A DNA stretch of 35,063 bases from Octopus bimaculoides (lineage: Eukaryota), in assembly GCF_001194135.2 (NCBI RefSeq), contig NC_068982.1:135817219-135852281 (forward strand), given 5' to 3'. Position numbers and translations under genes: made by a program. The notes beneath the pieces are model-generated. The model made no database searches, had not been told where the DNA came from, and saw only the letters and a list, made by a program, of their open reading frames with translations. This document shows, in pieces, positions 2,909 through 3,119 of this stretch (position 1 is its first letter; every line of letters starts with the position of its first letter).

Positions 2909-3119
2909 TTAATTTGTGCAAGTACCCTTGGAGAGACTGCATCTTGGATAACGTTGGCAGCAATCTTTGTCAGAAGAACAAGGATGTCCATACCAACAAT
3001 CATAGCAGAGTTTAGCCCAACGGTCACAAATGTTATAGCGGCGACAGCAGTCATTATTGGTACGACAACGTTGACGTAAACACATCCTGTTGGGGAGCAG
3101 CATCCAAGGCATGTGCATC
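2909..3119 (-). CDS. Terminal coding exon of a cysteine-rich peptide with two tandem ICK/knottin-type domains (C-C-CC-C-C x2); 5' exon(s) not located
   Basis: Translation (x)MHMPWMLLPNRM-CLRQRCRTNNDCCRRYNICDRWAKLC-YD-CWYGHPCSSDKDCCQRYPRCSLSKGTC-TN*. Spacings are C-x4-C-x5-CC-x5-C-x6-C and C-x5-C-x5-CC-x5-C-x6-C, with D-CC-x-RY shared by both halves. Preceded by the acceptor gtttttttctttcag|G at 3120; TAA stop at 2911-2909. Confidence 0.8.

Follow-up and report, generated by a model that had tools for sequence, protein, structure and literature searches.

What does a peptide built from two consecutive knottin-pattern modules do in an octopus? The question is raised by the terminal exon of a gene of Octopus bimaculoides on contig NC_068982.1 (assembly GCF_001194135.2), which encodes twelve cysteines arranged as two C-C-CC-C-C modules. 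The window analysed here is the whole stretch of 35,063 nt from 135,817,219 to 135,852,281 of that contig, and positions below are those of the window unless the contig is named. As of 2023, the natural peptides reported with tandem inhibitor cystine knots (ICK) were four, all from venoms, according to the available part of PMC9950431, while a sequence-only reading of the exon had proposed a venom, antimicrobial or neuroactive peptide. The gene is LOC106874007, uncharacterised, and its product is best read as an unnamed ancient lophotrochozoan ligand resembling a neuropeptide or hormone. The exon and its surroundings comprise:

3120..3135, minus strand: splice acceptor, pyrimidine tract and AG (sequence and RNA reads)
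2909..3119, minus strand: coding part of the terminal exon, with the last base of a split codon, the N-terminal arm with PWxxLP, the 12-Cys domain and the stop
3087..3118, minus strand: N-terminal arm, with PW-x-x-L-P as its conserved motif and likely retained in the mature peptide (family comparison)
3005..3082, minus strand: module 1, C-x4-C-x5-CC-x5-C-x6-C (spacing and knottin alignment of the model)
2999..3004, minus strand: two-residue join, YD (family comparison, n=49)
2918..2998, minus strand: module 2, C-x5-C-x5-CC-x5-C-x6-C (spacing and knottin alignment of the model)
2300..2908, minus strand: 3' untranslated region (RNA coverage to ~2335; AATAAA at 2749-2744 and 2307-2302)

The cysteine frame runs on the minus strand from 3118 to 2912, between the acceptor tttcag/G at 3120/3119 and a TAA stop at 2911-2909. 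Its Cys codons start at 3082, 3067, 3049, 3046, 3028, 3007, 2998, 2980, 2962, 2959, 2941 and 2920, giving the octopus domain a spacing of 4, 5, 0, 5, 6, [2], 5, 5, 0, 5, 6; the precursor ends in C-T-N-stop. Net charge is +5 for module 1, +2 for module 2 and +6 for the octopus domain overall. The frame thus reads as first quoted, and the acceptor, stop and AATAAA elements then listed were all located. Two other frames that stay open across the exon, wholly or in part, were ruled out, since the database proteins and all homologues use the cysteine frame. A loose form of the double pattern occurs once in the six frames of the window and never in 100 shuffles. Moreover, genuine module-2 sequences (n=50) averaged 18.5 bits against a module-1 profile, versus 4.3 bits for 250 shuffles with the cysteines fixed; the internal duplication proposed at the outset is therefore borne out and extends past the cysteine frame.

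That this is a spliced exon of an octopus gene, read in the cysteine frame, was confirmed by RNA reads joining it to upstream exons. The region ~2335-3120 is covered by raw RNA-seq reads (X24) and by contigs of three further runs, with coverage near zero beyond the acceptor. The terminal-exon stretch is contained in 18 of 24 listed runs, from 6 studies; none of these carries a record as RNA, and transcription was settled by the mapped reads. An upstream exon, traced from a loose read end, was found 1.3 kb outside the window. The gene has two isoforms, X1 (147 aa) and X2 (136 aa), and five coding exons spanning ~67 kb, namely 79, 52, 69 and 33 nt followed by the terminal exon:

contig 135887460-135887382: coding exon, 79 nt, signal-like
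contig 135862383-135862332: coding exon, 52 nt, acidic
contig 135853646-135853578: coding exon, 69 nt, aromatic spacer
32124..32156 of the window, minus strand: alternative in-frame exon, 33 nt, 11 residues, Trp/Gly-rich, directly after the second KR (raw reads)

Among raw reads leaving the 69-nt exon, 4 enter the optional 33-nt exon and 15 go directly to the terminal exon; 14 connect the 69-nt exon upstream to the acidic one. The exon-skipping intron measures ~33.2 kb and reaches the exon lying just outside the window. A phase-1 intron follows the signal-like exon, and both KR sites are cut by phase-2 introns inside the Arg codon. In the exon-skipping form the phase-2 intron falls at AG/G of the basic codon, and in the inclusion form the last intron falls inside a Trp codon. 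The exons of 69 and 33 nt are alike in phase (2-2) and in a W-x-x-x-S-S-x-P-W pattern, which suggests an exon duplication.

The breadth of the family was determined with a full-library phmmer search using the exon as query (E<=0.001), which returned 54 proteins, among them one Octopus record and, by inspection, three unrelated repeat or CAP-like proteins. Apart from the Octopus record and one long repeat protein, the 52 matches P0012-P0063 consist of 47 with the full 12-Cys pattern, three truncated members and two unrelated sequences; the 47, the octopus protein and one close relative form the set of 49 used for family comparison. Twelve cysteines as 6+6 were present in 49 of the 54 sequences tested. 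Across the 49 members loop lengths are constant apart from the last loop, which ranges from 6 to 23 residues, and, in a single member, the fourth. The join has length 2 in 49/49, contains Asp in 46/49 and is followed, after the next Cys, by Trp in 48/49, a Pro is invariant in module 2, and PWxxL precedes the domain in 40/49.

An organism name was attached to 10 of the 20 matches looked up, all of them lophotrochozoan (Lineus, Pecten, Crassostrea, Physella, Lingula with two, Capitella with two, Paralvinella and Helobdella), covering bivalves, a snail, annelids, a nemertean and a brachiopod. As the taxonomic range rests on these 10 named matches, a restriction to Lophotrochozoa is not established by them. 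Identities between octopus and Crassostrea are 16/26 and 17/29 in the two modules, 8/27 in the signal and 2/15 in the pro-piece. The mature domain is the most conserved region of the precursor, the opposite of the pattern in conotoxins, where the mature region is variable. Between O. vulgaris and O. bimaculoides one of 136 residues differs, while domain net charge ranges from -4 to +9 among 26 members checked. Judged by sequence, this is an ancient precursor family, conserved in oysters, snails, worms and lamp shells; the domain is too short for a tree to settle orthology or the grouping of paralogues. No long fused form (530-2000 aa) came up when such forms were sought, a negative of little weight. 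Two Platynereis genes and a chiton member also sit, unnamed, in the available parts of bulk supplement files of PMC6425005 (dataset S1) and PMC3890597 (secretome). The O. vulgaris gene model P0005 stops after the first Cys of module 2, which may reflect an error of gene prediction or an isoform with a single knot.

In octopus the gene appears to be single-copy. Searching its own genome with the octopus domain gave one strong match out of 105, this locus, and a 54%-identical relative as query gave one match. No paralogue was thus found in the 2.3-Gb genome with two queries, although only the best candidates were scored and an intron-split paralogue could be missed. The 104 weak matches (E>=0.12) were rejected as paralogues: 18 of the 19 next-best, non-self loci are one repeat, and none of the 19 has DNA similarity to the exon. 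This dispersed octopus repeat translates to a module-2-like stretch and fills translated searches with weak false matches.

The precursor is composed of a signal-like N-terminus, an acidic pro-piece (net charge -7), KR, a Trp/Tyr-rich spacer, RR, a short piece, KR, the optional 11 residues, the PWxxLP arm and the two modules. A hydrophobic stretch with peak hydropathy 3.1 does open the full-length protein, in agreement with the secreted precursor first envisaged, the signal being judged by hydrophobicity only. The optional exon stands directly behind the second KR and therefore would alter the N-terminus of the mature peptide. Processing after the Arg of PNR/MC had been considered possible but is unlikely, for that Arg occurs in 12/49 members, whereas the PWxxL just upstream is kept in 40/49; cuts at the upstream KR sites are likelier. 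In 10/49 members the motif KR-[YWF]-A-x-[LM]-S comes after the pro-piece. The Pecten gene also has two isoforms (P0014, P0064), with a 13-residue spacer difference, and the longer adds a G-K-R site that could give an amidated, Tyr-ending peptide. In a subgroup including the Helobdella member (P0018, P0020, P0027, P0031, P0032, P0035, P0038, P0042, P0050 and P0057), the pro-region is long and carries a further conserved motif of its own, C-x-C-x-C-E-T-[KR], which in most cases stands soon after a KR site; the last loop is longer in the majority of these members.

No Pfam family scored above its cut-off for the exon or the 47 members. Toxin_23 (E 0.016, below its cut-off) and omega-atracotoxin-Hv2a (E 0.036) were the weak best sequence matches. 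The automatic UniRef label Granulin was rejected, with Pfam Granulin at E 2.7 and 8.7 bits versus a cut-off of 20.9; granulin has four CC doublets, and only two are present here. The best E in a PDB sequence search was 0.04, with Hi1a only at 4.2, and Foldseek gave no match at E<=0.001. Prediction from the single sequence was poor (pLDDT 64), and AF2 with 47 sequences reached pLDDT 73, with a beta-hairpin in each half. Each half of the model aligns with knottins (rmsd 1.3-2.5 A, Z 2.1-2.8), and each module probably folds as one. No double-knot toxin appeared among the fold rows, though absence there does not exclude one. The constant two-residue join (C-x-D-C-W) suggests a single rigid unit of two lobes, comparable to Dickkopf CRD1 and Draxin; because the length of the join is invariant, it is doubtful that the two knots move independently in the way of DkTx.

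The product of LOC106874007 is thus probably, with moderate confidence, an endogenous secreted ligand: an exported, convertase-cut, rigid two-lobed peptide with a splice-variable aromatic arm, binding a conserved receptor or channel. Exon order, both splice forms, the layout of the precursor and its conservation are observed; its secretion, cleavage, disulfides, tissue and target are inferred. The signal peptide would lead the precursor into the secretory pathway, where convertases would cut after the acidic pro-piece, at the first KR, and probably also at the later RR and KR. The C-x-D-C-W join would hold both lobes as a single binding surface and the PWxxLP arm would be kept on the mature peptide, with the optional 11-residue exon setting arm length and yielding two ligand forms. 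The 12-Cys peptide would then engage a receptor or channel at the cell surface as the animal's own ligand, in the manner of a neuropeptide or hormone, and a conserved lophotrochozoan receptor is expected because of the slow evolution of the family.

A close precedent in architecture is offered by the CCWamide and agatoxin-like peptide (ALP) precursors, as described in the available part of PMC8557429. These have in common with the octopus gene a short precursor with a signal, a non-conserved pro-piece, a dibasic site and a C-terminal knottin-type peptide in the last exon, as well as a broad lophotrochozoan distribution. For CCWamide/agatoxin-like neuropeptide genes, Thiel et al. 2021 (PMC8557429) use as a feature that a phase-2 intron interrupts the basic codon at the cleavage site; in the exon-skipping form of the octopus gene, the last basic codon at that site carries such an intron. 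Nemertean CCWamides also have a Tyr-rich spacer between two KR sites (PMC8557429, part of the supplement). The octopus family differs in its 6+6 cysteines as opposed to eight conserved ones, in the lack of an amidated aromatic C-terminus, in the four or five coding exons of the octopus gene and in the absence of its motif from the parts of the CCWamide lists searched.

Several points weigh against an endogenous ligand. A dibasic site lies within 12 residues before PW in only 19/49 members, some of the matches being partial gene models, and the mature N-terminus is therefore uncertain. No C-terminal amidation signal was found, with 1/49 members ending in G-K. The AF2 model has a pTM of 0.46 and all Z-scores are <=3.5. 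Protease inhibitors, too, occur among conserved knottins, and one of the fold rows is potato carboxypeptidase inhibitor; neural expression and peptide processing are both inferred.

The alternative that survives best is a secreted modulator of Dickkopf, Draxin or prokineticin type, whose two-lobed domain would sit on an LRP5/6-, Kremen- or DCC-like receptor and tune the signal of another ligand. The fold rows covering both halves are Draxin-C (Z 3.5, rmsd 4.2, 53 aligned), Dkk1 CRD2 (3.1), Dkk4 CRD1 (2.7), Bv8 (2.4) and colipase, within a range of Z 2.1-3.5 that lies below the meaningful level of the tool, and Dickkopf_N clusters in the Atlas (TM 0.33-0.36) serve as leads only. According to the available part of PMC6078440, Dkk4 CRD1, with cysteines at 41, 47, 53, 63, 66, 73, 79, 80, 85 and 90, has the same C-x2-C join and an ICK-like C-terminal lobe, a likeness of pattern only, and duplication of an ICK-like subdomain is there proposed as the origin of Dkk CRD1-type domains. 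Such a modulator is nonetheless improbable, since all Z-scores are below 4 and all Atlas TM values below 0.4, the octopus domain has 12 cysteines and not the ten (five disulfides) of Dickkopf CRD1 and Draxin-C, and the precursor, with its acidic pro-piece and several dibasic sites, resembles a proneuropeptide and is without a second CRD. On pattern, the octopus family may correspond to the Dkk4 CRD1 unit with one additional pair of cysteines, by which the first knot is made complete.

Less probable is a conserved secreted protease inhibitor of knottin type, or an extracellular or mucus protein, a role on which knottin protease inhibitors among the fold rows and the occurrence of the stretch in 18 of the 24 runs listed, a possible sign of broad expression, would bear. 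Short knottins, however, all weakly match one another, and conserved dibasic sites with an alternatively spliced arm better fit a regulated ligand; we regard this role as decidedly improbable.

An antimicrobial or innate-defence peptide similar to the multi-module CRP-I of mussels is highly improbable. The octopus domain is cationic (+6), and the available part of PMC4558851 describes in multi-MgCRP-I the same C-C-CC-C-C array, with modules separated by 2-4 residues within a single exon, a phase-1 intron followed by a phase-2 one, and a dibasic site. However, MgCRP-I genes, with the consensus C(X3-6)C(X1-7)CC(X3-4)C(X3-5)C, are there a multigene group of at least 67 loci found in Mytiloida only, with a pre-pro region that is conserved and a mature peptide that is hypervariable. 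Synthetic CRP-I peptides themselves were without antimicrobial activity. The octopus gene is apparently single-copy and slow-evolving, with the mature domain best conserved and the last two loops (5 and 6) outside that consensus, and the charge of the domain varies across the family as noted above.

Very improbable indeed is a venom toxin of octopods that would bind ion channels bivalently, in the manner of DkTx, Hi1a or Xt3a. It would account for two tandem C-C-CC-C-C modules of duplicated origin, the weak best sequence matches are spider toxins, and it is well documented that venoms have recruited endogenous peptides (PMC13311285, available part). However, an oyster, a scallop, a pond snail, a brachiopod and annelids that feed on deposits have orthologue-like genes, non-venomous animals of four phyla carry the family, gene expansion was not found, the slowly evolving mature region is conserved and not variable, and the join has invariantly 2 residues versus 4, 6 and 12 in the three characterised double-knot toxins (available part of PMC9950431). 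Among the roles first proposed, then, the neuroactive one is favoured, whereas a venom or defence family proper to octopods or cephalopods does not agree with an apparently single-copy gene that is conserved in several lophotrochozoan phyla, non-venomous filter feeders included, and most conserved in its mature domain.

Beyond an endogenous ligand as such, a broader proposal can be held only tentatively and is rather unlikely in full. An all-lophotrochozoan double-knottin neuropeptide system, with a splice-switched arm, would predate the split of molluscs, annelids, nemerteans and brachiopods; its two complete knots, joined by C-x2-C, would preserve the duplicated-ICK ancestor proposed for the Dickkopf, Draxin, prokineticin and colipase domains, and double knots would have served self-signalling long before arthropod venoms.

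The family is probably new. Gene and protein identifiers and family motifs were not found in the literature searched, and topic searches gave no family description; the absence of a recognised family from the first reading is matched by the lack of a name in the neuropeptide catalogues and literature covered. The motifs are absent from the searched parts of the supplements of PMC8557429 and PMC10501145, and from that of the O. vulgaris salivary-gland paper PMC7693380, which may not list sequences. No match was found among the 104 named precursors of PMC3890597, the supplements of PMC6425005 and PMC3890597 being covered in part. Prohormone-3 was discarded as an identity: Lineus longissimus prohormone 3, in the available part of the PMC8557429 supplement, differs from the Lineus member P0012 when compared by eye. 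If the favoured reading is true, a conserved double-knottin in oysters, snails, annelids and brachiopods would enlarge the peptide signalling of lophotrochozoans by a family left unnamed in the catalogues covered; the receptor of this rigid ligand with two lobes could be sought in tractable animals such as Platynereis, Crassostrea and cephalopods, and the family would provide a living test of the origin of Dickkopf-type domains by knottin duplication.

The remainder of the window holds minor features. A loose single C-C-CC-C-C pattern at +21987-22073, in a short hydrophobic frame, is probably due to chance. Short high-copy repeats at 3535-3920 and 4355-4500 draw many RNA reads from other loci. 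The 33-kb intron contains several decayed retrotransposon-like fragments beside long (TAA)n tracts, at ~16000-16900, 18800-21150, 23300-26300 and 27100-28500, which from motifs in their open frames may be LINE elements.
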